62,754 nucleotides of DNA, taken from the NCBI GenBank assembly GCA_017609285.1, contig JAFCEE010000004.1, positions 1-62,754 of the forward strand, given 5' to 3'. This stretch comes from Candidatus Pacearchaeota archaeon. Its GTDB lineage: Archaea; Nanobdellota; Nanobdellia; Pacearchaeales; GW2011-AR1. This document shows positions 1 through 56,300 of this stretch, one piece after another. The notes below the pieces were generated by a model. That model was not told the origin of the DNA, searched no databases, and was given only the letters and a program-made list of their open reading frames with translations. A program made the position numbers and the translations under genes. Positions within the stretch are counted from its first letter, which is position 1, and every line of letters starts with the position of its first letter.

Positions 1-113
1 GTCTCAGAATATACAACTTTTCCTGTTTCTGGATCAGTTACTCGCATCCAATACCACATATCTGGATCGTGCCATCCGTCCTGATAATCTATACTTATTC
101 TTTTCATTCTCAT
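1..113 (-). CDS. hypothetical protein, N-terminal fragment (gene runs off window start)
   Basis: ATG at 113-111 on minus strand, open to nt 1: MRMKRISIDYQDGWHDPDMWYWMRVTDPETGKVVYSE...; too short for the ORF track; no family recognised. Confidence 0.3.
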   Translation of the reverse strand, partial: MRMKRISIDYQDGWHDPDMWYWMRVTDPETGKVVYSE

Positions 114-205
114 TTCCCCAGAAACAGCTGAGGTACTGATCACCTCTATTACGAGAGTTCTACTATGTTTATAAACTTTTCGTAAAAATCGCACTTATCT
201 ATTTT

Positions 206-466
206 CCCACCCTGAAAGAAAAATTAAAACTCACGAGGTCGCTTCTTGCTCCACTCGTGCCTTCCGCTTCGCTTCAGGTCAAGCAACAGCAGATTAAGCG
301 GAAAATTTCTCTCGCATTCGCTCGTGCTTTTCGTAAGCACCAAAATTTTACCCATATTTTTCCTTCGGAAAAACAACTCGGGGTCGTTTCACTCCGCCCG
401 AGCCCTACGGGTCGCTTAATCGCGATGTTTCAATTGTCGGACATTTATTATTAAGGGGCTGGCTCG
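206..466 (+). ncRNA. Unclassified GC-rich structured element, copy 1, 5' arm (candidate large ncRNA or structured DNA element)
   Basis: Visibly GC-richer than flanks. Identity blocks with copy 2: 206-238 vs 7960-7992 (32/33), 277-301 vs 8028-8052 (23/25), 376-429 vs 8079-8132 (52/54). Conserved helices 232-237/254-259 and 292-300/413-421, hairpin 356-372. Strand suggested by one U.G-compatible change. Confidence 0.45.
434..463. repeat. Left half of two-tier inverted repeat enclosing ORF 536-1267
   Basis: TTGTCGGAC (434-442) and AGGGGCTGGC (454-463) are perfect reverse complements of 1304-1312 and 1281-1290. Confidence 0.85.
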
Positions 467-535
467 CTAACGAAAGCTTCAATCAAATTTGCACACATCA
501 ATACATTTTTATACCATTTATTCATAACATATAGT

Positions 536-1267
536 ATGCAGAATAAAAATTATCTTTATATTGGAATAATCGCAGTTTTAGCTGTTGTAATTGTCTTCTT
601 AATTGTTGGCTCTAATCAACAACAGCAAAAAGTTCAAATGAAACCATCTACTTTAATATTTAAATTAAAAAGCGATTATTCTGGGAATTATCTTGGAGCC
701 ATCAATTACTATAGTGATACCAACACTTATCGCTCATTTTATACAATGGAATTATTTGATTATTGTTATATGGCCACAATTGAAAACTGGGTTTGCCTAT
801 TGGACGAAAACACAGGCGAAGAAGATTGTCATTGTAAAGGTAGCCCAGGTGTTGAAGATAAAAGATATTGTTTGGCATCAGAAGAAGAAATCTGTTTTAA
901 TATGGACTCTGATAAACAATTAAAAAATGGCGGTGTCAAAAAACTATCAAATAATTATTATGCTGTGATTTATCCTGCTTCAGAAGAAATGGTTAAGAGA
1001 TTTGCGGTTTTTGATAAATCAATAATCACCAAAGCTATAAGTGAAAGTGATAGGGTATCAATAGTTCCTGCAACATTTCCGAAAGGAATTAAGCCTGGAA
1101 TGGGAGATTCTATGGAAATGTCTCGGGAAGAGTTTTATAGCTATGTAATTGATGAGAATCCTTTGATTGAAGCATATTTCTGTGATGAACCAGAACAAAA
1201 TTTAAATGCTGTTGCAAGAGATTTATCCAATGGAGAAATCCCAATCACTTGCAAACAAATTATATAA
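536..1267 (+). CDS. hypothetical membrane-anchored Cys-rich protein (cargo of element copy 1)
   Basis: 243-aa ORF with N-terminal TM (YLYIGIIAVLAVVIVFLIVG). TATA-like TTTTATA at 507-513, about 23 nt before the ATG. No family recognised. Confidence 0.6.
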   Translation: MQNKNYLYIGIIAVLAVVIVFLIVGSNQQQQKVQMKPSTLIFKLKSDYSGNYLGAINYYSDTNTYRSFYTMELFDYCYMATIENWVCLLDENTGEEDCHCKGSPGVEDKRYCLASEEEICFNMDSDKQLKNGGVKKLSNNYYAVIYPASEEMVKRFAVFDKSIITKAISESDRVSIVPATFPKGIKPGMGDSMEMSREEFYSYVIDENPLIEAYFCDEPEQNLNAVARDLSNGEIPITCKQII

Positions 1268-1275
1268 TTCTAAAA

Positions 1276-1645
1276 CGCTCGCCAGCCCCTACTTTTAATT
1301 TTAGTCCGACAACTTTGATTTTTTGCCTTCGGCATCGTTGCACTAAAAATCAATCCCTCCAAGTATTCGGGAGAAACTAACAGGGCTTAAAGGGTTCCGT
1401 TCGGTTGCACCTCACTACACCCAAATTCAATTTCAGCTCTGAAAAAATTCTCAACTCTGTTTCACGAGGAGAATTTTTTCGAGGAAATTGAACTTCTTTA
1501 AGCCCGATGTTAGTTTCAATTTTTGAGAATGTGCATAAATTTTTTATAATGAAGTGCCCAAGAAATGAAATAAGATAGCGTCCCGCCATCTAAGGCTTCC
1601 CAGTAACTCTTCGGATTTTTTGCTTCGCAAAAAACTCTACGCAAG
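1276..1645 (+). ncRNA. Unclassified GC-rich structured element, copy 1, 3' arm
   Basis: 1336-1358 vs 8679-8701 (22/23: CGTTGCACTAAAAwTCAATCCCT). Shared CTTTG(G)ATTTTT + C/G-closed TTC hairpin. Nested helices 1383-1392/1496-1505 and 1441-1452/1469-1480. Confidence 0.4.
1281..1312. repeat. Right half of two-tier inverted repeat enclosing ORF 536-1267
   Basis: GCCAGCCCCT (1281-1290) and GTCCGACAA (1304-1312) pair with 454-463 and 434-442. Confidence 0.85.
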
Positions 1646-1726
1646 ATTATTTTAGCTATATATCCTCACCCAAAGCAAAAGATACTCCAAAAGTTTAATA
1701 AATACCAAGTTTCTTAAATTTAAAAG

Positions 1727-2314
1727 ATGGTGCTAGGAAACAAATTTATTGTAAAACAAGAAATAGAAGCATTAGAAATTTTTACTGGTTTTGAAACAGG
1801 CAATAGATATTCTATTCTTGACGAAAGAGGAAATAAATTTCTTTATGCCTATGAAGATGAAAGTAATTTCATAAGCAAACAATTCCTAGGACAACACAGG
1901 GGATTAAAATTACATATATTAGACAATAATAAAAATGAGATTTTCACTATCGAAAGACCTTTTTATTTTTTGAATTCTAAGGCAAAAATAAAATTAAGCG
2001 ATGGAAATTTATTTGGCTCAATCATCCAGAGAAAATGGTTGGCCACAAAACAATTTGATTTTATTCTTCCAGATGGAAGAATTTTATTCTCTTGTATTTC
2101 AAAAGTGCCACATATTTGGACATTTAAGGTTTTTATGAATAATCAAGAGATAGCCCAAATACTGAAAAAATGGAGTGGTTCCGGAAAAGAATTTTTTACA
2201 GATACAGATAATTTTATGATTGATGTGTCTAATATTCAAGATGATTCAACTAAATACGCTGTTTTAATAACTGCCTTTATTATAGACTTAAGGGTTTTTG
2301 AAAGGAGAAGTTAA
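1727..2314 (+). CDS. phospholipid scramblase (PLSCR)-family protein
   Basis: Full-length resemblance to eukaryotic PLSCR core as recalled: QEIEALEIFTGFETGNRY...ERPF...FTDTDNF...ITAFIIDLRVFE versus QQIELLEVLTGFETNNKY...ERPL...FTDADNF...GACFLIDFMFFE. Confidence 0.8.
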   Translation: MVLGNKFIVKQEIEALEIFTGFETGNRYSILDERGNKFLYAYEDESNFISKQFLGQHRGLKLHILDNNKNEIFTIERPFYFLNSKAKIKLSDGNLFGSIIQRKWLATKQFDFILPDGRILFSCISKVPHIWTFKVFMNNQEIAQILKKWSGSGKEFFTDTDNFMIDVSNIQDDSTKYAVLITAFIIDLRVFERRS

Positions 2315-2315
2315 A

Positions 2316-3044
2316 ATGGACATTATTGTTTTAGATAAGATTCTAAAAAGATTTAGAAAAAAAGATATTCTTGATTATTTGTCCTTGAATATAAGGGAAG
2401 GCGAAATTTTTGGGATTGTTGGACGAAGTGGTTGCGGTAAAACAACTTTATTAAAGGTTCTTATAGGGATGTTGAATTATGAATTAGGCAAAATTTACTT
2501 TGATGGACAGAAAATTCATATTTTCAATAAAGATTTTTTGAAAAATAATATTGGCTTTGCAAGTCAAGAAAATATGCTTTATGACGAATTAACTTTAATG
2601 GAGAATATTTTCTATTATGGAAAATTGTATAATCTTTCAGGGAAAATAATAAAGAAAAATGCTTCGTCATTACTAAAATTAGCAGATTTGGATGGTGCCA
2701 AAAATTCTCTAATTAAGACTTTTTCAGGAGGGATGAAAAAGAGAGCAAATATTCTCGTTTCTCTTATCCATAATCCAAAAGTTTTAATCCTAGATGAGCC
2801 AACTGTTGGGCTTGATCCGGTTCTTCGAGATTCAATATGGGATTATATTAATGAAGTTAATAAAACTGGAAAAACAATAATTGTAACATCGCATTTATTA
2901 GAAGAATTGCAAGACAATTGTTCAGGAATAGCATTTATGGATAAAGGCAAAATAGTTTCTGTTTATGACATCAAAGATAAAAAGAGATTTTCAAATAAAT
3001 CTCTTAATGATATTTTCAAGGAGTGGGTTTCAAAAAATGGTTAA
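2316..3044 (+). CDS. ABC transporter ATP-binding protein
   Basis: Walker A GRSGCGKTT, signature FSGGMKKR, Walker B LILDEP. ATG at 2316 lies 1 nt after the scramblase stop (the track start 2298 is a TTG). Confidence 0.9.
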   Translation: MDIIVLDKILKRFRKKDILDYLSLNIREGEIFGIVGRSGCGKTTLLKVLIGMLNYELGKIYFDGQKIHIFNKDFLKNNIGFASQENMLYDELTLMENIFYYGKLYNLSGKIIKKNASSLLKLADLDGAKNSLIKTFSGGMKKRANILVSLIHNPKVLILDEPTVGLDPVLRDSIWDYINEVNKTGKTIIVTSHLLEELQDNCSGIAFMDKGKIVSVYDIKDKKRFSNKSLNDIFKEWVSKNG

Positions 3045-4740
3045 ACTATTTTCAATAATATCTAAAAATGTAAAAGTTGTGTCTAGAAGTTGGATTTATG
3101 TTGCACTCTTGATAATATTGCCTACAATTTTTGTTTTGGCTACGAGTTTGTTATTAGATTCTGTAGATGTTAATAATGTTAAAATTGGAATTGTCAATAA
3201 CCCTGGTTCTTATGAAATAAGAGAATTAATACCTAATGCAAAATTCTCGGATTATGCCTCTTTTGAAGAATGTGAAAAAGACCTTAAGTCACATTCTATT
3301 CCTGTTTGTATTAATCCAACCCAAGATTTTAATGAGACAAAAATAGATATTTATTTCGATAATTCAAAACTTCTTATTTCTCAATATGCAAAACAATATG
3401 TTTCTAAAAAAGTTTTGCAAGAACAGCTTGTAGCTTTTGAATTAACATTGGATGAAGTTTTAACAAAAATGACTTCTCTTGCTGGTGATGTAGCTTTGGC
3501 AAAAACCGAATTAGAAAATGCTTATTCAGAGTTAGTTGCACAAGAAGAAAGAATCTTGTCTTATCAAGAAAATTTTACAGAAATTGAAGAAGATTTTCAA
3601 AGAGTTTATTCTGATGTTAAACACTATCAGCCATTAATTGAAGATAATATCGAAACTCTAAAGGAGGTTAAAAAATATTTGGGAGATAATTTAACTGAGT
3701 TTAATCAACAGAGTCAAAATCTTCGTAATCAGGTAGATTTAATTAAACCAATTTTACAAAGCACACTTTCCCAAGAAGATTATGAAGATATTTCTAATCG
3801 GATTGATGGGACGATTAACACAATGGGTATTTTGGAAAGAGATCTAAACGAACTTAATTCAAGGCTCTATTATGATGACCCCGATTTAATGCTTGCAGAT
3901 TTTAATAATGCAGTTTCAACTTTAGACCAAACTAAAACCCTTTTTGAAAATTTAGACAAGGAAATCGAACAAGGAATGGAAATTATACAAAAAAATAAGG
4001 ATAGGGCTCAAGAAATTTTAAATGAAATTGAATCAAATAAAGAAGAACTTGAAAAAATAAGAAGTAAGGTTAAATCTACATCAAATTACAAGATTGTTTT
4101 GAACGATGCCTTTAAAATTAATGAATCTGCCTCTTATTTATTTTTTCCTCTGCTTCTTGTTCTAATAATTGCATTTACTTCAATAATCTTATCTAATATG
4201 ATCATAGTAGAACAAACACACAAACAAAGTTATATTAGGGAAATTATAACTCCTACAAAAGATTTTACTTTTCTTCTAGGGGATTTTATTGTTGCTTTGT
4301 TCATTGTCCTCATACAAGTAATTATTCTTTTCTTTATAGGTGAATTTATGTTCGGTCTTCCAATATTCTCAAATATCCATTATCTTTTGCCAATAGCAAT
4401 TTTGATTTCTTCAATTTTTGTTTTGATTGGAATGTCAATAGGTTATATTGTTAGATCTAAAAATATATCAATTTTAGTTTCAACATTTACTTTATTATTT
4501 TTAATAATCTTTTCAGACTTATTAATTCCTAGGCAATTAACAGGAACATTTATTAGAATACTGACTAGTATAAATCCCTTTGTAATTGCTGACAAGCTCT
4601 TTTTTAATATGATGGTCTTTTCAGAAACAATTAAATTCACAACCCTATATATTGTTCTTTTATCAATATTTTTAATTTTTGTTTTTCTTTTTGCATATAT
4701 TTGTAAAAAAATAGGAAAGTACAAATTAATGAAAGAATGA
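3037..4740 (+). CDS. ABC-2 type permease with long coiled-coil extracytoplasmic insert (YhgE/Pip-like topology)
   Basis: In-frame ATG at 3037 overlaps the upstream stop (ATGGTTAA). One N-terminal TM, about 330 aa of coiled-coil, then a C-terminal multi-TM bundle. Confidence 0.7.
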   Translation: MVKLFSIISKNVKVVSRSWIYVALLIILPTIFVLATSLLLDSVDVNNVKIGIVNNPGSYEIRELIPNAKFSDYASFEECEKDLKSHSIPVCINPTQDFNETKIDIYFDNSKLLISQYAKQYVSKKVLQEQLVAFELTLDEVLTKMTSLAGDVALAKTELENAYSELVAQEERILSYQENFTEIEEDFQRVYSDVKHYQPLIEDNIETLKEVKKYLGDNLTEFNQQSQNLRNQVDLIKPILQSTLSQEDYEDISNRIDGTINTMGILERDLNELNSRLYYDDPDLMLADFNNAVSTLDQTKTLFENLDKEIEQGMEIIQKNKDRAQEILNEIESNKEELEKIRSKVKSTSNYKIVLNDAFKINESASYLFFPLLLVLIIAFTSIILSNMIIVEQTHKQSYIREIITPTKDFTFLLGDFIVALFIVLIQVIILFFIGEFMFGLPIFSNIHYLLPIAILISSIFVLIGMSIGYIVRSKNISILVSTFTLLFLIIFSDLLIPRQLTGTFIRILTSINPFVIADKLFFNMMVFSETIKFTTLYIVLLSIFLIFVFLFAYICKKIGKYKLMKE

Positions 4741-4776
4741 AAAGATTTAAAAAGATGTAAAAGATTATACAATAAA

Positions 4777-5106
4777 ATGGAATCAAAAACAGGTTCAATA
4801 CTTTTAATGATTAGTGGAATCTTAACACTTCTAGTTTCTTTGGGTCTTATTGTTCTTTCAATTCTTGTATTTGCAGGAGTTTTGGAAGGAGAAGGTAATG
4901 TTGCATTAGGCGGAGCATTTTTATTAGTTATTGGAATTGTTATTTTAATATTCTCTTTATTGAAATTTTGGGCTTCTGGATTAATGAAAGATCCAGTTAC
5001 GACTTCTAAAGGAGGGGTTGTTGCCCTAATAGTTGGAATTCTAAACGGTGGCGACTTGTTATCAATAATTGGAGGGGTGCTGGGAATTGTTCAGGGTGGA
5101 AAATAA
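4777..5106 (+). CDS. small Gly-rich multi-pass membrane protein
   Basis: 109-aa ORF, almost entirely hydrophobic/Gly segments, directly downstream of the ABC operon. Confidence 0.5.
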   Translation: MESKTGSILLMISGILTLLVSLGLIVLSILVFAGVLEGEGNVALGGAFLLVIGIVILIFSLLKFWASGLMKDPVTTSKGGVVALIVGILNGGDLLSIIGGVLGIVQGGK

Positions 5107-5118
5107 AAACAATAAAAA

Positions 5119-5823
5119 TTATTTTTTTATCCTTTCTATCTTTCCGTCTTTCAACAGAATAATTCTATCAAAATATTTTTCGAAGGCTTTTTCGTGATTT
5201 ATGACAAAGATTGTTATACCCTTTTCTTTATTCAATTTTTTTAGAGTTTCCATTATTTTTATTCCAGCTACAGAATCTAAATTTGCAGTTGGCTCATCTG
5301 CAAGGATCATTTCAGGTTCTTTAATCAATGCCCGCGCAATTGCAATTCTTTGTTGTTCCCCTCCAGATAATTCCGCAGGATAATGGTCTTTTCTTTCTAA
5401 TAGCCCCATTTCATTTAAGATTTTTTCCGCTTTTTTCTTTATTTCTGTTGTTATTCCTTTATCTACCATCAGGGGAAGATAAATATTTTCTATCGCGGTT
5501 AATTCAGGCAATAATTCATAGTGCTGAAAAACATAACCAATTCTCTTTAATCTAAAATTTGATTTATCATCTTCATTTAATTTTATAATATTTTGCCCAC
5601 AAAAATTTATAATTCCCGAAGTAGGATTATCTAATAAAGAGAGTTGATGAAATGTTGTAGATTTTCCACTCCCTGACGGTCCAGATAAAGCAATAAATTC
5701 TCCTTTTTTCACATCAAAAGAAATTCCTTTTACTGCTTCTGTTTTTGCCTTTCCTTCCCCATAAGTTCTTACTAAATTTTTAACAGATAAGATTATTTTT
5801 TTAGCCATGGAAAATTGAGTCAA
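5119..5823 (-). CDS. ABC transporter ATP-binding protein (MacB/LolD-type)
   Basis: GPSGSGKST, LSGGEQQR, ILADEPT. An alternative ATG at 5808 would reduce the overlap with the permease. Confidence 0.9.
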   Translation of the reverse strand: MTQFSMAKKIILSVKNLVRTYGEGKAKTEAVKGISFDVKKGEFIALSGPSGSGKSTTFHQLSLLDNPTSGIINFCGQNIIKLNEDDKSNFRLKRIGYVFQHYELLPELTAIENIYLPLMVDKGITTEIKKKAEKILNEMGLLERKDHYPAELSGGEQQRIAIARALIKEPEMILADEPTANLDSVAGIKIMETLKKLNKEKGITIFVINHEKAFEKYFDRIILLKDGKIERIKK

Positions 5824-7012
5824 TTATATTTTGTTTAGTTATTTTTTTAGATACAATGTATCCGGAGATTATTGATGCAAAAATAATCGCAGAACTGACA
5901 AAAATAAAAATATTTATTTTAACTTGAGGAACTAATTCTCCCACTTCTGTTTGTATTGGATTAAATCTAAAGTATTTTATCATTAACAAAGTCAAGAGAA
6001 TTCCCAATACAGAGCCGATAATTCCCAAAAAAAATGAAAGCATAACATAAGATAAAGCCACTATTTTTGATTTTATCCCAATCGCTTTAATAATCCCAAT
6101 TTGAGTTTTTTTGTTAAGAATATTTATGTATAAAATTACATAAATAGAAATTGATGAAATTAGAATTCCAATAAAAAAAGATATATTTCCAATTATTGTA
6201 AAAGAATCTACAACAGAAGAAAATTTTGAAGATTTTTCTTTCCAGTCAGAAATTTCCACATTTAGATTCATCTTTGATAATTCTTCGATAATTTCACTTG
6301 TACATTCTCTTTTAGGCAATAAAATTATTATTTGGTCTGCTTTTGTGGCATTATAATCAGAAAAAACCTCTTTAGCTGTTTCTTCGTTAATATAAGATGT
6401 TCTCTCAACTTCAGCATATCTATGGTCATAAATTCCTTTTAGGGTTAAGAAAGTTTCGGGGTATCCATTTGGAACAATACGGGCTTTTTCCCCAACATCT
6501 AATTTAATTGTATCAAATGCTTTTATTTCATTACAACTTTCAATATTTACACAACCCATTAAGATTTTATCATTTTCTCCTTTATAAACAAAATCTCCTT
6601 TTTCGATTATATTATCTACAATTGAAACTTCTGAAAATTCTTCGGGATTAATAACTAATATTTCTGTATCAATATAATTTTCATCTTCATCATAAATACG
6701 GGCAGATTTTTTAGTTATTTTTGCAATACCTAAAATATTGGACAAAACTTTTATTTTTTCAACAACATTATTAACATTCTCAATTTTATCTTGATTTTTG
6801 TAGGGTTCTAAGATCACATGCCCCATATTTGTTTCTATAAAATTTTCTTGCAAATCATAACTAACATCTTGCAAAACCCCATAAATTATAATTGAAGAAA
6901 TGAAACCTAAAGAAATAATTAAAATTGTAAATAACAAAGAATTTTTATTTTTGATAATGTTTTTTTTTGCAATAAAAAAAGCTGTGAGAATTTCATTTTT
7001 TTTCATTCTCAA
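5801..7012 (-). CDS. FtsX/MacB-like ABC transporter permease
   Basis: N-terminal TM, large extracytoplasmic domain, C-terminal 3-TM FtsX-type bundle. Overlaps both neighbouring genes. Confidence 0.8.
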   Translation of the reverse strand: MRMKKNEILTAFFIAKKNIIKNKNSLLFTILIISLGFISSIIIYGVLQDVSYDLQENFIETNMGHVILEPYKNQDKIENVNNVVEKIKVLSNILGIAKITKKSARIYDEDENYIDTEILVINPEEFSEVSIVDNIIEKGDFVYKGENDKILMGCVNIESCNEIKAFDTIKLDVGEKARIVPNGYPETFLTLKGIYDHRYAEVERTSYINEETAKEVFSDYNATKADQIIILLPKRECTSEIIEELSKMNLNVEISDWKEKSSKFSSVVDSFTIIGNISFFIGILISSISIYVILYINILNKKTQIGIIKAIGIKSKIVALSYVMLSFFLGIIGSVLGILLTLLMIKYFRFNPIQTEVGELVPQVKINIFIFVSSAIIFASIISGYIVSKKITKQNIIDSIFHG

Positions 7013-7839
7013 TTTTTCGGATTTAATTTTTTCCGATAAAGGAAATAACCTAAAACTCCAAATATTAAAATTATTCCCGCAATATAATAATGATTTGTTC
7101 CATTTGAAAATATTTGAATTTGTATTGGAAAATTTAATTCCTTATTTTCTCCAGCAAATTTATAATTAACTTTTATATTTCCTTCATAAATTCCTTTTTT
7201 GTTTCCCTCAAAAACAAATCTCGCAGGTATATTTTCGTCTGATTCTATTTTTCCAAGATATTTTTGTTTAACTCCTTTTAATTCTAACTTTTCTAATTCT
7301 ACTCTAACATCCTTGGCTTTTCCGTTTCCGGCGTTTTCTATATCTATTGTTAGAATAATTTTTTCACCCTCAGAAATAATTTCGGGATTTGTGTAAATCC
7401 TGGAAACTGCCAAATCTGGTTTTTGTGTGTTTATTGTAATTGAAAAATTATCTTCTTTTTCTATATGAAAATTTTTATTTCCGTAAGTAATCTTGGTTTC
7501 AAAAACATGTTCTCCAGGACTTGCGTCGGGAGAAGAATGCATATGGTAAAGAATAAATCTTTGGCTGTTTGCATAACCCATTTTCCCAATATGATTTATT
7601 AAAGGTTCTTTTATTTCTATATCTTCACTATGCCTCAAAATTTCAAAAGTTATATTTTCTGGAATCTTATCCCCACAATTATCTATAACAATTCCAACTG
7701 TAAAATCCTCATCAGCTTCTATTGAACTAGGATTTATAGAGGTTATTTCCGCTGTTACACAATAACCTCTTTGAAGTGCAGAAACAGAGCTTACTAAAAA
7801 TAAAATTACAAATATTAATATCATTCCTCTTTTTATCAT
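7009..7839 (-). CDS. secreted beta-rich protein with C-terminal TM anchor (CARDB / S-layer-domain-like partner of MacB-type ABC systems)
   Basis: Signal peptide, two Ig-like beta-rich segments, C-terminal TM. 4-nt overlap with the permease gene. Confidence 0.5.
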   Translation of the reverse strand: MIKRGMILIFVILFLVSSVSALQRGYCVTAEITSINPSSIEADEDFTVGIVIDNCGDKIPENITFEILRHSEDIEIKEPLINHIGKMGYANSQRFILYHMHSSPDASPGEHVFETKITYGNKNFHIEKEDNFSITINTQKPDLAVSRIYTNPEIISEGEKIILTIDIENAGNGKAKDVRVELEKLELKGVKQKYLGKIESDENIPARFVFEGNKKGIYEGNIKVNYKFAGENKELNFPIQIQIFSNGTNHYYIAGIILIFGVLGYFLYRKKLNPKN

Positions 7840-7959
7840 AATAAAATAATTGAATACAGGTTTTTAAATCTTATTGGAAATTTCTTTTTTAGAAAAAAGA
7901 AACAAAAAGCGAGCGGGCAATATCTCAAAATTAAATGGTCGTCGGAACCATCCTCCTCC

Positions 7960-8177
7960 CCCACCCTGAAAGAAAAATTAAAACTCATGAGGGGCTTTTT
8001 TAGCCCAGCTCGTGCCTCACTTCGTTCGGTCAAGCAACAGTAGATTAAGAGGTAATTTCTTTTTGCTTCGCAAAAAACACTCGGGGTCGTTTCACTCCGC
8101 CCGATCCCTGCGGGTCGCTTAATCGCGATGTTAGTTTCAATAAAAAATCAGCTAAATATAGAAAGGGCTTTGGACTT
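7960..8177 (+). ncRNA. Unclassified GC-rich structured element, copy 2, 5' arm
   Basis: Paralogue of 206-466 (same blocks). Lacks about 40 nt present in copy 1. TATA-like AAAATTAAAT at 7927-7936. Confidence 0.45.
8141..8177. repeat. Left half of two-tier inverted repeat enclosing ORF 8177-8524
   Basis: TAAAAAATCAGC (8141-8152) and AGGGCTTTGGACTT (8164-8177) are perfect reverse complements of 8640-8651 and 8591-8604. Confidence 0.85.
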
Positions 8178-8524
8178 TAACTCATCATAGTAAAAACAGG
8201 TTTATCATACTTAACAGAGTTATCATCATTTACTAAATATTCAAGTTCGGCTCCTCCACCTGAAAGTAGAGCAATATCCTGAAATCTGAGTTTTGCTCTT
8301 GTTTTTTCTGGTCTCGAAAATGAAGTAATTGTAAATCTTCCCATTCTTTGGCCTTCTGAATATTGTTGGAAGATTTTATCAAGACTTGCTTCTGTTTCTA
8401 AATCCTCTGGAACATAAATTCCCATAGGTCTTTTTTCTCTATTATCTCGCAAGTCCCTTAATACATTTCTAAATACTTCTTCATTTTCTTTTGCAGTTTC
8501 ATAATAATCTTGTACGCCGAACAT
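8177..8524 (-). CDS. hypothetical protein (cargo of element copy 2, opposite strand)
   Basis: 115-aa ORF. TATA-like TTTAAATA (plus-strand 8547-8554) about 23 nt upstream of the ATG at 8524. No family recognised. Confidence 0.5.
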   Translation of the reverse strand: MFGVQDYYETAKENEEVFRNVLRDLRDNREKRPMGIYVPEDLETEASLDKIFQQYSEGQRMGRFTITSFSRPEKTRAKLRFQDIALLSGGGAELEYLVNDDNSVKYDKPVFTMMS

Positions 8525-8590
8525 ATTATATGATGATGATAACTAATATTTAAAGTTTTCGGATATTTACTACTAAGAAGTTACCATGAT

Positions 8591-8651
8591 AAGTCCAAAG
8601 CCCTAGAAGTTTTAACTAATGGTGCTTCGCACTCGATATGCTGATTTTTTA
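8591..8651. repeat. Right half of two-tier inverted repeat enclosing ORF 8177-8524
   Basis: AAGTCCAAAGCCCT (8591-8604) and GCTGATTTTTTA (8640-8651). The spacer contains hairpin GTGC-TTC-GCAC. Confidence 0.85.
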
Positions 8652-8814
8652 CTTTGGATTTTTCGGACTTCGTCCGAACGTTGCACTAAAATTCAATCCC
8701 TAACAGGGATTATAACACGGGTTTTATGGTTCGAGCCTTGCAGGCTCTCGGGCTAAAGCCCTCGGAGGACTTAACAGCGATTAGGCGGAAAAATCCTCAG
8801 CTCGGATTTTTCCC
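8591..8814 (+). ncRNA. Unclassified GC-rich structured element, copy 2, 3' arm
   Basis: Homologous to 1313-1392. Hairpins 8664-8676 (CGGAC-TTC-GTCCG), 8696-8710 (ATCCCT-AAC-AGGGAT) and 8733-8747 (GAGCCT-TGC-AGGCTC). Confidence 0.4.
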
Positions 8815-8883
8815 AAATTTCTTACATAAAAATTTTCCTGAAAAAATTTAAATACTTTCTTGTTTAGTGATAAAGAAATAAAA

Positions 8884-9474
8884 ATGAGTACTGACTCATT
8901 AACAGATTTTGAACAAAAAATAGAAAGATATGATGGAAGGAGAAATCTTTTCGAATCTTTTCTTGTTTGTTCTATGCAAAAGGGGAGGAAAGAATTTCCT
9001 ACTATTGAAAAATTTTTGTTATCAGAATTGATTAATGGTGTTGTAACATATGTCGGAGGAAAAGTTGAACAAGTAGATTATTGGGCATATTATTTTGGAG
9101 ATGGGGGATTGGAGGAAAAATTAGTTAAAGAAATTTTTCAAAGAGAAATGACAGAAGAGAGAAGGAAGAAAATTCAGCCAAAAATAATGAGGGCTATAGA
9201 TAAGATGATAAATTATTCTTATGTTAGTCCATCTGGTCTTTCTTTTGATACTTTCCCTTACTGTGAGGTATATGGTTTTGCTGGAGATATTTTTGGAGTT
9301 CCAAAACCAATCAGTTATTTAACAGATAATGTTATAAACAGAGCTGATGAAATGCTTACTTCATTAAAAGAACAAGAGAGAGAAAATGTCTACGGAATAG
9401 GAAGAGTTATGAGGCCTTTTATTGAACAAGATATAGACTACATAAAAAGAGTATATTTTTGGCGAAAGTTTTAA
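8884..9474 (+). CDS. hypothetical protein
   Basis: ORF-track frame 8860-9474. First ATG is at 8884, about 30 nt after A/T-rich box 8841-8855. No family recognised. Confidence 0.5.
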   Translation: MSTDSLTDFEQKIERYDGRRNLFESFLVCSMQKGRKEFPTIEKFLLSELINGVVTYVGGKVEQVDYWAYYFGDGGLEEKLVKEIFQREMTEERRKKIQPKIMRAIDKMINYSYVSPSGLSFDTFPYCEVYGFAGDIFGVPKPISYLTDNVINRADEMLTSLKEQERENVYGIGRVMRPFIEQDIDYIKRVYFWRKF

Positions 9475-44764: not shown

Positions 44765-44882
44765 GCCTCAGTAGCTCAGTCGGTTAGAGCGTTACCTTGG
44801 TATGAAAATCACCAGCAGGTTTTCTATCCTGCGACCAAAAACAAAAAGGTAGAGGTCGTGGGTTCAATTCCCACCTGAGGCT
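44765..44882 (+). tRNA. tRNA-Thr (GGU) with 44-nt intron at 37/38
   Basis: GCCTCAG-TA-GCTC-AGTCGGTTA-GAGC-G-TTACC-TTGGTA[intron]A-GGTAG-AGGTC-GTGGG-TTCAATT-CCCAC-CTGAGGC-T. Confidence 0.85.
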
Positions 44883-48662: not shown

Positions 48663-49702
48663 ATGGTAGGGCAAAAAAGAGGCAAGTTTTTTTCAGCACT
48701 GGGTTTTGTTTTGTTTTTGTATTTATTTATTTTTTCTATTACACTTATGAAGCAATCTTTTTCCTCTTTAGGGGAGAGTATCCTTAGAATAACAAGTAGG
48801 GATTTAAGTCCTGTTAATGCTTTTGGGATTGGATGGCTTTCTACTTTAGTTATGCAATCTAGTGGTGCGGCTACTGTAGCTTTAATTACTCTTTATTCAG
48901 CTGGCTTAATCGGATTTAGAATACTGGTTTATATGATTTTAGGGACGAGAATAGGAACTACTATCACTGCTTTATTTGTTGCTTTATTGATTCATGCGAA
49001 AAGAAGAGATTTTAGACATGGTTTTGAAATAGGTTTAGCTAATTTAGTTTATGCTTTTCCCATAGCTATCTTAATGTTTCTTTTAGAATATTTTTTCAAA
49101 CTTTTTTCTCAAATAGGAAATTATTAGGTATAAATTTTAAACTGAACTTTATTGAAACTATTACTTCTCCCTTACTTAATTTACTCTCTTTTTTACCTAG
49201 TATTATTTTAGTTTTACTCGCTGTACTCATTTTGATTATTAGTTTGAGGGTAATGCCTAAATTCATGCTTTCTTTGTGGGGAGAAAAATATTTGAGGGAA
49301 AAAATAAATAAGTATCTTGGAAATAAATGGATGGCTTTTTTAATTGGCTTTTTAATTACTGCTATTTTAATGTCGACAAGTATCACCATTACTTTACTTG
49401 TTCCAATTGTTGTTTTAAGATTAGTTAATCTGAAAAAAGTTTTGCCGTATATGATAGGGGCTAATGTTGGTGGTGTTTTTGATGTTGTTATGGGAGGTTT
49501 AGTTATTGGAAGTTCTGCTTTTTCAGCTATTTTTGTTTATGTTTGTTTTAGTGTTTTTGGTCTGTTATGGCTTTTTAATACTCAGCTTTTATTTGACATA
49601 ACTAAATTTATCTCAAAAAAAATCGTGCGTGTTTCTAGAAAAAGAGCTTTTCTTTTCTTGTTGTTTTTCATTTTACTTTCCTTAGTTTTAGCATTTGCAT
49701 AA
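48663..49702 (+). pseudogene. Na/Pi-cotransporter-family membrane protein, split by a frameshift near 49043-49127
   Basis: Two ORFs (48663-49127 in frame 0; frame 2 open from 49043 to 49702) each carry a Na_Pi_cotrans-like repeat (GIGWLSTLVMQSSGAATV...; LMSTSITITLLVPIV...). Confidence 0.5.
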
Positions 49703-53321: not shown

Positions 53322-56300
53322 ATGAGTTATAAGAAATATATTAAAAGAGGTAATAAAATTTATGGACCTTATATTTATAAAAGCGAGAGAAGAGGAGAAA
53401 AAGTTGTTACACAATATATGGGTAAAGGAGAAATTGATAAAAAAAGAAGAAACAAACTCAAATTTTTGTTGGTAATTCCTCTTCTTGTAATTGTTGCTTT
53501 AATTTTTTTTAAAACTTTTCTAACTCCTACTGGGAAGATTGTTTTGGAACCTATTCCTATTTATAAAATCAATGAAACAATAATGGGAGATGTAAAAATA
53601 AATCTAAACCGTGGTGAATTAATCCCTGCTGATTCTTTGATATTATTAAAATTAGATGGGCAAGAAAAAGAAATTTCTTTATCTCAAATCACTTCTATGG
53701 AACCTATAGAAGGGGATTTTTATGCTGAGAATACTGGATTGAGTGGACATGGTTTAGGTTATGGTTTTCCTGGTGAAAAGAAAATTTACCCTACAATTTC
53801 TTTTAAGATTTTAGTTTATGAAATATCTGAAGACATAGAAGAAAGCGAGGTTTCCCAAGAATCCAATGAGGAAAACATTACAAAAGCAGTAGAAGAAGAA
53901 ATCACCTCTGAACCAACAGAAGAAACAACACAAGCAGAAGAACCTGCTCTAGAAATAACAGAACAACAAGCAGAAGAAGAAACTATTACTGAACCAACAG
54001 AAGAAACAAAAGCAGTAGAAGAAGAAATCACCTCTGAACCAGTAGAAGAAACAACACAAGCAGAAGAACCTGCTCTAGAAATAACAGAACAACAAGCAGA
54101 AGAAACATCATCATCCGAAGAAACAAAAGCAGTAGAAGAAGAAATCACCTCTGAACCAGTAGAAGAAACAACACAAGCAGAAGAACCTGCTCCTGAATCG
54201 ATAACACAAACGACAGGAGATGTTAAAGGAGAGGCAGGGATAACTGGAGCAGTAGTCGGAGGTTCAAGAGTTATCGATGGCAAGGTTTCTTATGGCGAAG
54301 AATTCGAGTATGTTCTTGGACCGGGAGAAACAGCTGCAATAATTTCAGAAAGTGTAAAAACTGATGATAAAAATTTAACATCAGATGTTCTAGAGTTTGA
54401 GATTAAAAACAACAAAGTAATAATAACAACACAATATTATGAAACAGAACAAGGTTTTGGTCCTGAGTATCTAACTGATGAGGTTGAAAGCTTGACTGCA
54501 GAACTGGAAAAGTTTAATCTAAAAGCTTTGCCAGGAATTTTAGAGATTTCGATTTTGTATAAGAATACGACAATAACAGAGTTATCAAAAAAAATCAGGG
54601 TTTCAAAACAAGAAATCCCTTTTGAAATAGAGAACATAACTATTAACATAACAGTTACTCCTAACGCAACCTCGATAAAACAAATAAAAACAATTCCAGA
54701 TATAACAATGTTGAAGAATTCTAGATATATATTAAATCTTTCTCATTACTTTTATTCTAATTTTAGTATAACTTATACAGCAATACAGCCAGAAAATATG
54801 AGTATAATTGTGGAAGGCAATAAAGCTGAAATAATTCCTCAAACTAATTTTACTGGAACTCGGGCAAGCAAAATAATAGCTCAAGTAGGAGATTTAATAA
54901 TAGAAAGCAATCTTTTCAATATTATTGTTTCTGAAAGAGATATAAGTTTAAGAACAAGTAAATTGATAAGATTAGGAAAACCAGTTAAGTGGAAAAAGAA
55001 CATTAGGTTGGAGACCCCAACTAATTTTACTATTCAAATCCCAGAAAAATCCAAAAATATAACCATTAGGAAGATTGAGAATGGCAAACAAAAAAAGACA
55101 GAAATTAAAAACTTTAAGGTTAGGGCAGGGACTCTGACAGGGTATCTAACTCTTGAACTGAAACTTGAGAGAAAGCCATCTTTTTTAAAATCTCTAAAAA
55201 ATTTATGGATGGGTCTAAAAAAACTGACTGGTTTGGCAATTGAGAATGAGACAGAAAATACGTTTGTTATAGAAGAAAAATTAACAGAAAATGTTATAGA
55301 AATAGTTATTGAAGATAATGCTACAGAATATGAAATTGAGTATGAAACATCAGCTCCTGAGGCAAGAGAGATAAGAATAGGGAAAGGAAAGAAACAAATT
55401 ACTATTGAGGCTGAACTGCCCTATACTGATATACTTGCATATACTTTTATAGAGGAAAGCAAAGAAGAAGAAATTATTGTAGAGGGAGCAGAATATTATG
55501 AGTTAGTAGATAACAATAATGATGGTCTTGTTGACGAGGTTGACTGGATTGCGAATGTAGGAGATGAGATTTTAATTAGTATAAACAAGACGGATAATCA
55601 AACAAAAAAGGTATTTAATAGAACTAAAAACGCTGATATTTATTATCTTGGGGATAACACTTACAAAGCAGTTATTAGTTTAAAGCAGAAAAATGTTAAA
55701 GTAAACAATACTTATGTTCCTTTAACTGATGTTTTAGAAATGTATTCTAATTATAAGGGCAATATTTATATTAATTTTAACAATACTGAAATTAAATTAA
55801 CACCCTATTACTATTCTGGTTCAGAAAAATTTTATTTAAGTAATATTTCAGATTATGATGTTTTGTATCATTCTCATGTTTATGATAATAAAGGGGGTTA
55901 TAAATATGCTTTTGGGATTTTTAATTTTTCAAAACTTAATACTAATAAAATTGGTTTTGAAATAAATAGTAATAAAAATATTGTTATAGAAAATAATAAA
56001 ATTATTACTGAAAATATTTTAGTTGATTTTTCTGATGTTGCTGAAAGCAATTATTCTTTGAATATGAGTTCAGAATATGTTGAGATTACTGGGGAATTTG
56101 GCGAGAATCTTTATTTAGACCCAAGTGTCACAACACCAGACCCTACTTGGGACAGAACTTGCTATTGGGATGATAGTGCAGGAAATTATAAATTTGATGA
56201 TGCAGCTTCTACAACTTTACCTTGGGGTTATCATAGTACTCTTGGTGACATAAGAAGAGGTGCAATAGACCTTGATATTTCAGCTATTCCAGATGATGTT

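Follow-up and report, generated by a model that had tools for sequence, protein, structure and literature searches.

A candidate integron-like gene cassette in a Pacearchaeota genome, bracketed by a two-tier inverted repeat and adjoining large folded repeat units

Introduction

The described systems closest to the locus reported here are integrons, gene modules in which housekeeping-type Xer recombinases are implicated, and introns that contain open reading frames (ORFs). Ghaly et al. (2022) described archaeal integrons with canonical IntI and attC, and the supplements of that study list Pacearchaeales and Woesearchaeales genomes with 3–4 attC sites, without sequences (PMC9668308). The pdif modules of Acinetobacter plasmids are presented as genes between inversely oriented Xer sites (PMC7399989), and the dif site of Pyrococcus abyssi reads ATTGGATATAA-TCGGCC-TTATATCTAAA (PMC2958812). 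The present study concerns a stretch of 62,754 nucleotides (nt) from Candidatus Pacearchaeota archaeon (GCA_017609285.1, contig JAFCEE010000004.1, positions 1 to 62,754 of the forward strand), hereafter called the window, which is AT-rich with about 30% GC. Near its beginning, a gene for a protein of 243 amino acids (aa), termed cargo 1, is enclosed by a two-tier long-range inverted repeat, and conserved sequence lies directly outside both arms.

We put it at about an even chance that the region represents a single gene cassette belonging to a type of integron-like array that is typical of Pacearchaeota and Woesearchaeota. The window is proposed to hold two such one-cassette arrays, at 205–1534 and 7878–8830, with the recombinase gene located outside it. 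A broader interpretation, which is offered tentatively, is that these arrays represent an undescribed gene-capture platform of DPANN archaea, an independent Xer-based counterpart of integrons that would combine a XerA-type recombinase lacking the integron-specific domain with large multi-hairpin sites folded from a single strand, a crossover inside the site, and cassettes bracketed by the halves of a basal stem. A XerA-associated integron-like array appears to be undescribed, as no paper linking Xer recombinases with cassette arrays in DPANN archaea was found in our literature search.

Results

A preceding sequence-only reading of the window had reported two nested pairings around the 243-aa ORF, and both were confirmed when their coordinates were rechecked. 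The outer tier consists of TTGTCGGAC (434–442) paired perfectly with GTCCGACAA (1304–1312), the inner tier of AGGGGCTGGC (454–463) paired perfectly with GCCAGCCCCT (1281–1290), and the internal loop between them measures 11 nt (443–453) on one side against 13 nt (1291–1303) on the other. As that reading had also stated, conserved element sequence picks up right outside both arms, with GATGTTTCAAT at 424–434 and (A)CTTTGATTTTT from 1312/1313. Shuffling the two flanks 20,000 times never equalled the nested pairing of 9 + 10 bp (19 paired bases), nor did any of 20,000 random genomic pairs of 49-mers about 830 nt apart, the best of which reached 17. The two-tier inverted repeat of cassette 1 is thus real and non-random.

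The conserved sequence outside the arms belongs to a folded repeat unit that is backed by covariation. A scan of public genomes and metagenomes located its exact 19-mer core GGGTCGTTTCACTCCGCCC at 9 loci in genomes of Pacearchaeota and Woesearchaeota and at 27 loci in metagenomes, besides two further matches that are GC-rich chance occurrences; related loci are designated L with a number below. In these loci, the sequence forming the "3′ half" in the window lies directly upstream of the "5′ half", and motif maps showed tandem arrays of one unit, which resolved an apparent circular permutation of the window copies. From 5′ to 3′, the unit opens with ACTTTGATTTTT-hairpin-CGTTGCACT-AAAAATCAAT, followed by one hairpin and ..AACAG; the two strands of a covarying helix then enclose hairpins, among them the invariant core, and GATG-TT-N6-AAT comes last.

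An alignment of 24 units (A4) served as the basis of both the fold test and the covariance model R1. The alignment yielded a conserved multi-hairpin fold with an invariant 14-nt loop, in which 96.3% of cells were paired, compared with 32–50% when the partners were slid; nine pairs changed on both sides, and none of 500 shuffles matched the covariation score. The AACA/TGTT pairing is invariant and the inner helix covaries, while the flanking bases depart from RYYY/RRRY. The R1 model found 72 units in 35 Pacearchaeota/Woesearchaeota sources. Its matches, which run from AAC to GTT plus about 20 nt of flank, were mostly 131–138 nt long (range 93–200); the modelled part amounts to about 137 nt, or about 200–250 nt with the 5′ module and arms. 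The units occur in same-strand arrays with one to a few variable genes between consecutive units, and they occupy a single strand per locus with one exception among the 72. That exception, at 6454–6583 (+) of L034, lies opposite to the strand of its array (50 bits) and immediately upstream of a XerA gene. In the window, R1 detected exactly three units (279–440, 1373–1522 and 8030–8143), all within the first 9 kb of 62.7 kb, and the 457-kb contig behind L010 contained a single exact core.

The first array of the window has the following features, all on the plus strand.

205–278, +: leader of array 1, CCCACCCTGAAAGAAAAATTAAAACT and the hairpin CACGAG...CTCGTG, common to copy 2 (7955–8029) in alignment A1 and present in L009 as well.
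279–427, +: repeat unit A, alpha type, with AACAG at 285–289 and the invariant core GGGTCGTTTCACTCCGCCC at 381–399, ending in GATG at 424–427; R1 match 279–440, 119.8 bits, E 3e-22, backed by covariation.
428–434, +: shortened Xer-arm-like TTTCAAT, with which cassette 1 is proposed to begin; the full 11-mer TT-N6-AAT is seen in other units.
434–442, +: outer 5′ arm TTGTCGGAC, starting at the last T of ..AAT.
454–463, +: inner 5′ arm AGGGGCTGGC.
464–535, +: putative promoter region of cargo 1, with the conserved box AAAGCTTCAATCAAATTTG and an A/T (TATA-like) box at about 505–513, kept upstream of homologous genes in L039 and L029.
536–1267, +: cargo 1 ORF, 243 aa, membrane-anchored, with 8 Cys.
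1281–1290, +: inner 3′ arm GCCAGCCCCT.
1304–1312, +: outer 3′ arm GTCCGACAA, whose final A is the A of the ACTTTG that starts the next unit.
1313–1372, +: 5′ module of the next unit, a helix TTGATTTTT/AAAAATCAA around the hairpin GCCTTCGGC plus CGTTGCACT, followed by the hairpin CCCTCC..GGGAG; the same module follows the cargo-1 homologue in L039.
1373–1509, +: repeat unit B, with the divergent core ..CTCTGTTTCACGAGGAG.. and the long helix GAAACTAACA / TGTTAGTTTC; its GATG at 1506–1509 is the proposed 3′ end of cassette 1; R1 match 1373–1522, 45.7 bits, E 8e-7.
1510–1534, +: full Xer-arm-like 11-mer TTAGTTTCAAT and orphan 5′ arm TTTTGAGAATG, whose partner is absent from the window.

The second copy follows the same two-tier design with unrelated sequences, built around a 115-aa ORF (cargo 2) on the minus strand at 8177–8524. 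Here TAAAAAATCAGC (8141–8152) pairs with GCTGATTTTTTA (8640–8651), and AGGGCTTTGGACTT (8164–8177) pairs with AAGTCCAAAGCCCT (8591–8604). The blocks common to copies 1 and 2 are up to 92% identical, and their hairpins differ by compensatory changes. The second array is laid out as follows.

7878–8029, +: leader of array 2, the A/T hairpin TTTCTTTTTTAGAAAAAAGAAA and then CCCACCCTGAAAG...
8030–8130, +: repeat unit of copy 2, alpha core, ending in GATG at 8127–8130; R1 match 8030–8143, 100.2 bits.
8131–8177, +: Xer-arm-like TTAGTTTCAAT (8131–8141), outer 5′ arm TAAAAAATCAGC (8141–8152) and inner 5′ arm AGGGCTTTGGACTT (8164–8177), with orthologous frames in L045, L048 and L050.
8177–8524, −: cargo 2, 115 aa, conserved across DPANN archaea.
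8591–8651, +: inner 3′ arm AAGTCCAAAGCCCT (8591–8604), conserved loop with hairpin GGTGCTTCGCAC, and outer 3′ arm GCTGATTTTTTA (8640–8651).
8652–8830, +: terminal, apparently truncated unit with the CTTTGGATTTTT-hairpin-CGTTGCACT module, hairpins and AACAG at 8772–8776, lacking the closing ..GATGTT and giving no R1 match.

The position of the arms relative to the units follows a simple rule. Of the 51 units that had 400 nt or more of sequence after them, 22 were followed by a perfect arm of 9–16 nt that begins exactly at the last T of the ..AAT of GATG-TT-N6-AAT, with its reverse complement 0.3–3 kb downstream and then immediately the CT[T/C/G] of the next unit. The same test was passed by 49 of 3000 control positions (1.6%), even with an offset of ±3 nt allowed. 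Both window cassettes obey this bracket rule, and in cassette 1 T434 is the T of AAT and A1312 the A of ACTTTG. Different cargo occupies the same stem position, as the sequence-only reading had suggested looking for: the window itself holds a 243-aa plus-strand gene and a 115-aa minus-strand gene there, and related loci hold others. An "empty" unit-to-unit junction, with AAT running straight into ACTTTG, was found in none of the loci.

The arms covary as well. In the L029 orthologue of cassette 1 (minus strand, after the unit at 936–1056), the outer arm is TCGTCGGA/TCCGACGA against TTGTCGGA/TCCGACAA in the window, a compensatory change from T-A to C-G. The promoter and arms of these two loci are about 90% identical and the protein has diverged past detection by tblastn; therefore, the frame is better conserved than the gene. 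In the cargo-2 modules, the inner arm AGGGCTTTGGA is kept and the outer arms are wholly different yet complementary (AAAAAATCAGC in the window, TGAGAAAACGGC in L045, CGAATTTTCAAATC in L050). Arm families recur, for example YGTCGGAC and TAAAAAATCRGC, and one arm family also brackets unrelated genes in different loci. Since the arms vary between cassettes but stay paired, they are best regarded as part of the repeat scaffold, selected for pairing, and not as transposon ends. The orphan-arm sequence TTAGTTTCAAT-TTTTGAGAATG that ends array 1 (1510–1534) recurs in L004, L019, L023 and L028, and its partner in L023 and L028 is GGCATTCTCAAAA-ACTTTG, about 3 kb downstream. The 14-nt arm pair TTTTTGAGAATGCC / GGCATTCTCAAAA of these two loci encloses different content, about 3 kb in each, and an A/T-hairpin leader lies inside both.

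A third perfect inverted pair of 12 nt was noticed within cassette 1 (476–487/1162–1173), between the promoter box and the coding region. It was rejected as a third pairing tier, as it is not kept in homologues, and it is probably due to chance because the upstream box is missing in L042 and L044.

Comparison of near-identical loci revealed where their sequences part. Similarity ends exactly at GATGTT|: L035, L023 and L034 have one unit in common and part after it, the stretch shared upstream of the break by L015 and L028 measures at least 1.9 kb, and L016 and L038 differ directly after GATG. Identical post-junction sequences, in turn, follow different units. GATG is followed by an 11-nt segment with the consensus TTATAT(G/T)CAAT, and 10 of its 11 positions agree with the left dif arm of P. 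abyssi when that arm is read as its reverse complement. Double-stranded 11-6-11 dif-like palindromes were not found in the arrays, each unit having one arm-like 11-mer. Elsewhere in the window, an imperfect 11-6-11 palindrome resembling that dif site, ATTTGACATAA-CTAAAT-TTATCTCAAAA, is present at 49591–49618; it could be the real dif of the genome or a chance product of AT-richness. In addition, the 5′-module helix TTGATTTTT/AAAAATCAA(T) at 1315–1323/1345–1353, and likewise at 8680–8716, resembles the Xer-arm-like 11-mer and might be a second binding duplex.

The most frequent Pfam family among 147 ORFs from the related loci was Phage_integrase + Phage_int_SAM_4. Six orthologous recombinases with 42–74% identity are encoded in L001, L005, L008, L009, L010 and L034, on the opposite strand 0.4–4 kb upstream of the array and thus divergent from it; this arrangement holds for 6 of the roughly eight loci with enough upstream sequence. 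The XerA orthologue of L008 lies at 5582–6394. The earlier claim that no recombinase is present therefore stands for the window, where tblastn found none, but fails for the related loci. The six proteins scored 218–250 bits against the NCBIfam model recomb_XerA_Arch (NF040815; cutoff 220), and their closest solved relatives are XerA of P. abyssi (4a8e, the best PDB match) and XerA of Thermoplasma. They match XerA (NF040815; 4a8e) end to end, but IntI4 (2a3v) in two stretches; the integron-integrase model TIGR02249 was likewise matched in two stretches only (profile 1–181 and 251–315), skipping the IntI-specific domain. Models of Fim-type invertases gave 56–70 bits against cutoffs of about 220. 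Array 1 of the window starts about 200 nt from the window edge.

Cargo 1 was found as previously described, with an N-terminal hydrophobic helix and 8 Cys at 536–1267. The TATA-like box noted before its ATG is also present and lies about 27 nt upstream, and the box together with the sequence upstream of it is kept in L039 and L029. The cargo-1 mRNA is probably leaderless; as the conserved promoter is inside the arms, this mRNA cannot contain the 5′ arm. Cargo 1 had no Pfam match and 13 unnamed homologues with 38–70% identity. Its AlphaFold2 model (predicted local distance difference test score, pLDDT, 80) matched no PDB fold in Foldseek. The homologue in L039 keeps the downstream unit module, and the relatives in L039 and L029 have the same orientation as cargo 1.

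Cargo 2 had 68 homologues with 55–90% identity across DPANN archaea. Pfam gave nothing significant and one sub-threshold match, and the AlphaFold2 model (pLDDT 88) showed only weak NTF2/cystatin-like similarity (E 0.05). The same bracketed frame surrounds it in Woesearchaeota and Pacearchaeota genomes (L045, L048, L050) despite different neighbour genes, and its orientation is the same in all four contexts examined. For both window cargoes, the homology and structure checks (Pfam, AlphaFold2, Foldseek) thus gave no significant indication of function. Of ten other bracketed cargo proteins compared with Pfam, six had no match, two were methyltransferase-like, one was a C13/caspase-like peptidase and one a DUF7736 protein. 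The brackets of about 3 kb in L023 and L028 hold, judged by eye from the translations, a 946-aa ORF resembling an aminoacyl-tRNA synthetase and a three-gene block resembling an ABC transporter, respectively. Across cassettes, about half of the cargo is on the plus and half on the minus strand.

Several known classes of structured sequence were also considered. Neither window positions 1–9000 nor nine related loci matched any intron, ribozyme or other family of Rfam 15, whether at gathering thresholds or with E relaxed to 10. RNase P RNA or signal recognition particle RNA, possibly circularly permuted, was considered after CR-I-, CR-III- and CR-V-like strings had been noticed by eye, and this candidate was dropped, as contiguous versions gave no Rfam match and the seeming permutation proved to be tandem units. 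A lone weak CRISPR-DR5 match on the GTTGCACT module (24 bits, threshold 40) was set aside together with trans-activating CRISPR RNA (tracrRNA) and omega-RNA, as the motif occurs in two copies 7.3 kb apart with no array and no effector. A likeness to replication-origin boxes was perceived by eye only, with no Orc1/Cdc6 context seen, and was rejected as an explanation. The strand that folds was sought from wobble pairs, of which 33 fall on the top strand versus 13 on the bottom; these counts are ambiguous and gave no decision. Several hairpins have UNCG-like loops on the plus strand, and GNA triloops appear on the minus strand in 22 of 24 cases for one hairpin and in 17 of 24 (by eye) for another.

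Two observations concern the remainder of the window. A tRNA gene of 118 nt at 44765–44882 (+) was matched by Rfam with 59 bits and not called by ARAGORN; given its length it must contain an intron, which marks the genome as archaeal. Three tandem 126-nt repeats lie at 53880–54248, inside an 1880-aa ORF (53322–58964).

Discussion

Of the two options put forward by the sequence-only reading, the second, a gene cassette in a hairpin-type site, proved essentially right. The following mechanism is proposed. Strand exchange by the recombinase would take place at G|TT in the unit, the counterpart of the G|TTRRRY used by integron integrases, so that the mobile piece would consist of TT-N6-AAT, arm, gene, arm′ and the unit up to GATG. 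In the excised circle, arm′ and arm would flank the unit alone, separated by only about 230 nt, and would close it into one large multi-hairpin recombination site. Upon integration, the crossover would split this site, and its basal stem would then be seen as a long-range inverted repeat around the gene. When the predicted circle junction of cassette 1 (1275–1509 joined to 428–470) was folded, one closed multi-branched structure was obtained with both tiers as the basal stem, at −59.7 kcal/mol for the top strand and −63.4 kcal/mol for the bottom strand (z −11 and −9). The cassette model explains why a non-coding frame of arms, promoter and downstream module is kept around diverged or different genes, and why the orphan arm at the end of array 1 recurs in four other loci. 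A role of the stem at the mRNA level is unlikely, because the cargo-1 promoter is inside the arms and the partner of the cargo-2 inner arm lies upstream of the start of that gene.

A number of points weigh against the cassette model. Both window arrays hold a single cassette, the recombinase gene is missing from all 62.7 kb, and in L045 and L050 no recombinase is encoded within 5 kb of the cargo-2 module. Breakpoints fall exactly where a conserved repeat has its edges, so that homologous recombination between units could give the same pattern. An identical unit in L035 and L037 is preceded by a different arm′ and gene, which calls for homogenisation of units or for a second exchange at A|ACTTTG. 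Each unit has a single recognisable XerA half-site, housekeeping-type genes are found within the 3-kb brackets of L023 and L028, and cargo 2 is highly conserved, unlike typical accessory cassettes. As to which strand folds, and whether as DNA or RNA, the wobble counts are ambiguous and the UNCG-like loops of the plus strand point one way and the GNA triloops of the minus strand the other, and no excised circle or empty site was observed among the loci.

The first alternative to be weighed is a structured noncoding RNA, in which the units would be pieces of a plus-strand RNA and the stem would loop out or process away the gene segment in a read-through transcript. We consider this unlikely, even though several features would suit an RNA: the units fold into conserved hairpins with compensatory changes and a 14-nt loop that is invariant, they keep to one strand at each locus, and UNCG-like loops occur on the plus strand. 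The bracket arms, too, covary across long evolutionary distances, including at loci with no recombinase close by. Archaea have short Okazaki fragments, and long single-stranded DNA is hard to picture in them, which also speaks for RNA. Against it, Rfam gave no match when E was relaxed to 10, there is neither a ribozyme core nor a homing endonuclease or reverse transcriptase, and no bulge-helix-bulge was recognised by eye at the base of the stem. Moreover, cargo lies on either strand in about equal shares and has its own promoter inside the arms, it is swapped between relatives, and flanks are reassorted at GATG|TT beside a Xer-like half-site and a XerA gene. The triloops read on the minus strand are of the GNA type, which is a stable DNA hairpin motif. 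The first option of the sequence-only reading, an ORF carried by a peripheral stem as in group I/II introns or archaeal rRNA introns, is not supported, on the same grounds of either-strand cargo, internal promoter and Rfam results, and because the arrays are accompanied by a tyrosine recombinase and flanks are reassorted exactly at GATG|TT.

An equally improbable alternative is a passive family of intergenic repeats, similar to repetitive extragenic palindromes and bacterial interspersed mosaic elements (REP/BIME) or enterobacterial repetitive intergenic consensus (ERIC) sequences, whose flanks are shuffled by homologous recombination, the proximity of xerA being incidental or related to the terminus. 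Such shuffling predicts breakpoints at repeat edges, as found here, and is compatible with brackets around housekeeping-type genes, with a cargo-2 module conserved across orders, and with the failure to see empty sites or circles. A passive repeat family is, however, poorly reconciled with units confined to one or two short arrays per contig (three in the 62.7-kb window and one exact core in the 457-kb contig of L010), with a divergent xerA within 0.4–4 kb in six of roughly eight loci, with a XerA-arm-like 11-mer exactly at the point of reassortment, or with perfect arms that abut fixed positions.

It is very unlikely that the cassettes are invertible segments of the inverton or shufflon kind, in which the neighbouring tyrosine recombinase would flip the gene at the arms or at the inverted flanks TCAAT / ACTTTGA. 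The even division of cargo between strands, the perfect inverted repeats, the nearby tyrosine recombinase and the weak matches to Fim-type invertase models speak for this explanation, but the arm sequences vary between cassettes and so offer no common recombinase-binding site, cargo 2 keeps one orientation in all four contexts, as does cargo 1 with its relatives in L039 and L029, and the invertase scores of 56–70 bits fall far below their cutoffs.

An ordinary transposon or miniature inverted-repeat transposable element (MITE), in which the arms would be terminal inverted repeats around a passenger gene, can practically be dismissed: inverted repeats do flank the gene and arm families do recur, but there is no transposase, no target-site duplication was found, the arms have no family consensus and change in a compensatory manner, they always abut the same unit boundaries (AAT| and |ACT), and the units themselves are not flanked by complementary arms, so the case that the sequence-only reading had named as fatal to its claim did not materialise.

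Confirmation of the cassette model would mean that, in the smallest archaeal genomes, gene capture of the integron kind arose or was retained with a Xer recombinase of the housekeeping type, and would bear on the ancestry linking Xer and integron integrases. Because every gene would take the entire folded site along, the frame conserved around unrelated genes may inform how new integron cassettes arise. The sequence signature, which consists of the R1 unit model, GATG|TT-N6-AAT and the arm rule, can be used to find variable gene pools in DPANN metagenomes, and standard integron finders keyed to IntI may miss such pools.

Comparison with known systems

Introns with ORFs, that is, group I/II introns and archaeal rRNA and tRNA introns, likewise place a gene within a long-range helix of a conserved structured element. 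They differ from the present units, which matched no intron or ribozyme family, carry no homing endonuclease, maturase or reverse transcriptase as cargo, accept cargo on either strand (cargo 2 being opposite) and bear evidence of DNA recombination. Bulge-helix-bulge introns have 3-nt bulges around a 4-bp helix, whereas by eye the stem described here has 9 bp, an 11 × 13 loop and 10 bp.

A housekeeping-type Xer recombinase is likewise implicated in integrative mobile elements exploiting Xer (IMEX), such as the CTX phage, and in the pdif modules of Acinetobacter. The folded single strand of the CTX phage mimics a dif site and undergoes a single strand exchange. In contrast to both systems, the present arrays consist of long conserved structured units with one dif-like half-site per unit and no 28-bp dif-like duplex site, and their inverted arms are not recombinase-binding sequences.

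Integrons, especially sedentary chromosomal ones with long attC sites, such as the Vibrio cholerae repeats (VCRs), and archaeal ones (PMC9668308), resemble the present arrays. They likewise have a tyrosine recombinase divergent from the cassette array, a feature seen in six related loci, similar and imperfectly palindromic folded repeats between the cassettes, invariant AAC...GTT triplets paired at the base of the repeat, reassortment at G|TT, a cassette start that pairs with sequence near its own 3′ end, and cargo that mostly has no assigned function. The recombinase here is of the XerA type and lacks the additional IntI-specific domain around patch III. The attC sites, with which the units were compared by description, span 55–141 nt from RYYYAAC to G|TTRRRY, whereas the present site is much larger and multi-branched, with about 130 nt from AAC to GTT plus a 5′ module of about 60 nt and the arms. 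The cassette-borne 5′ portion comprises 20–45 nt (the Xer-like 11-mer and arms) as opposed to 6 nt in integrons. Finally, integron cassettes are mostly promoterless and co-oriented, whereas the cassettes described here carry genes on either strand, about half on each, with their own promoters as in cargo 1.

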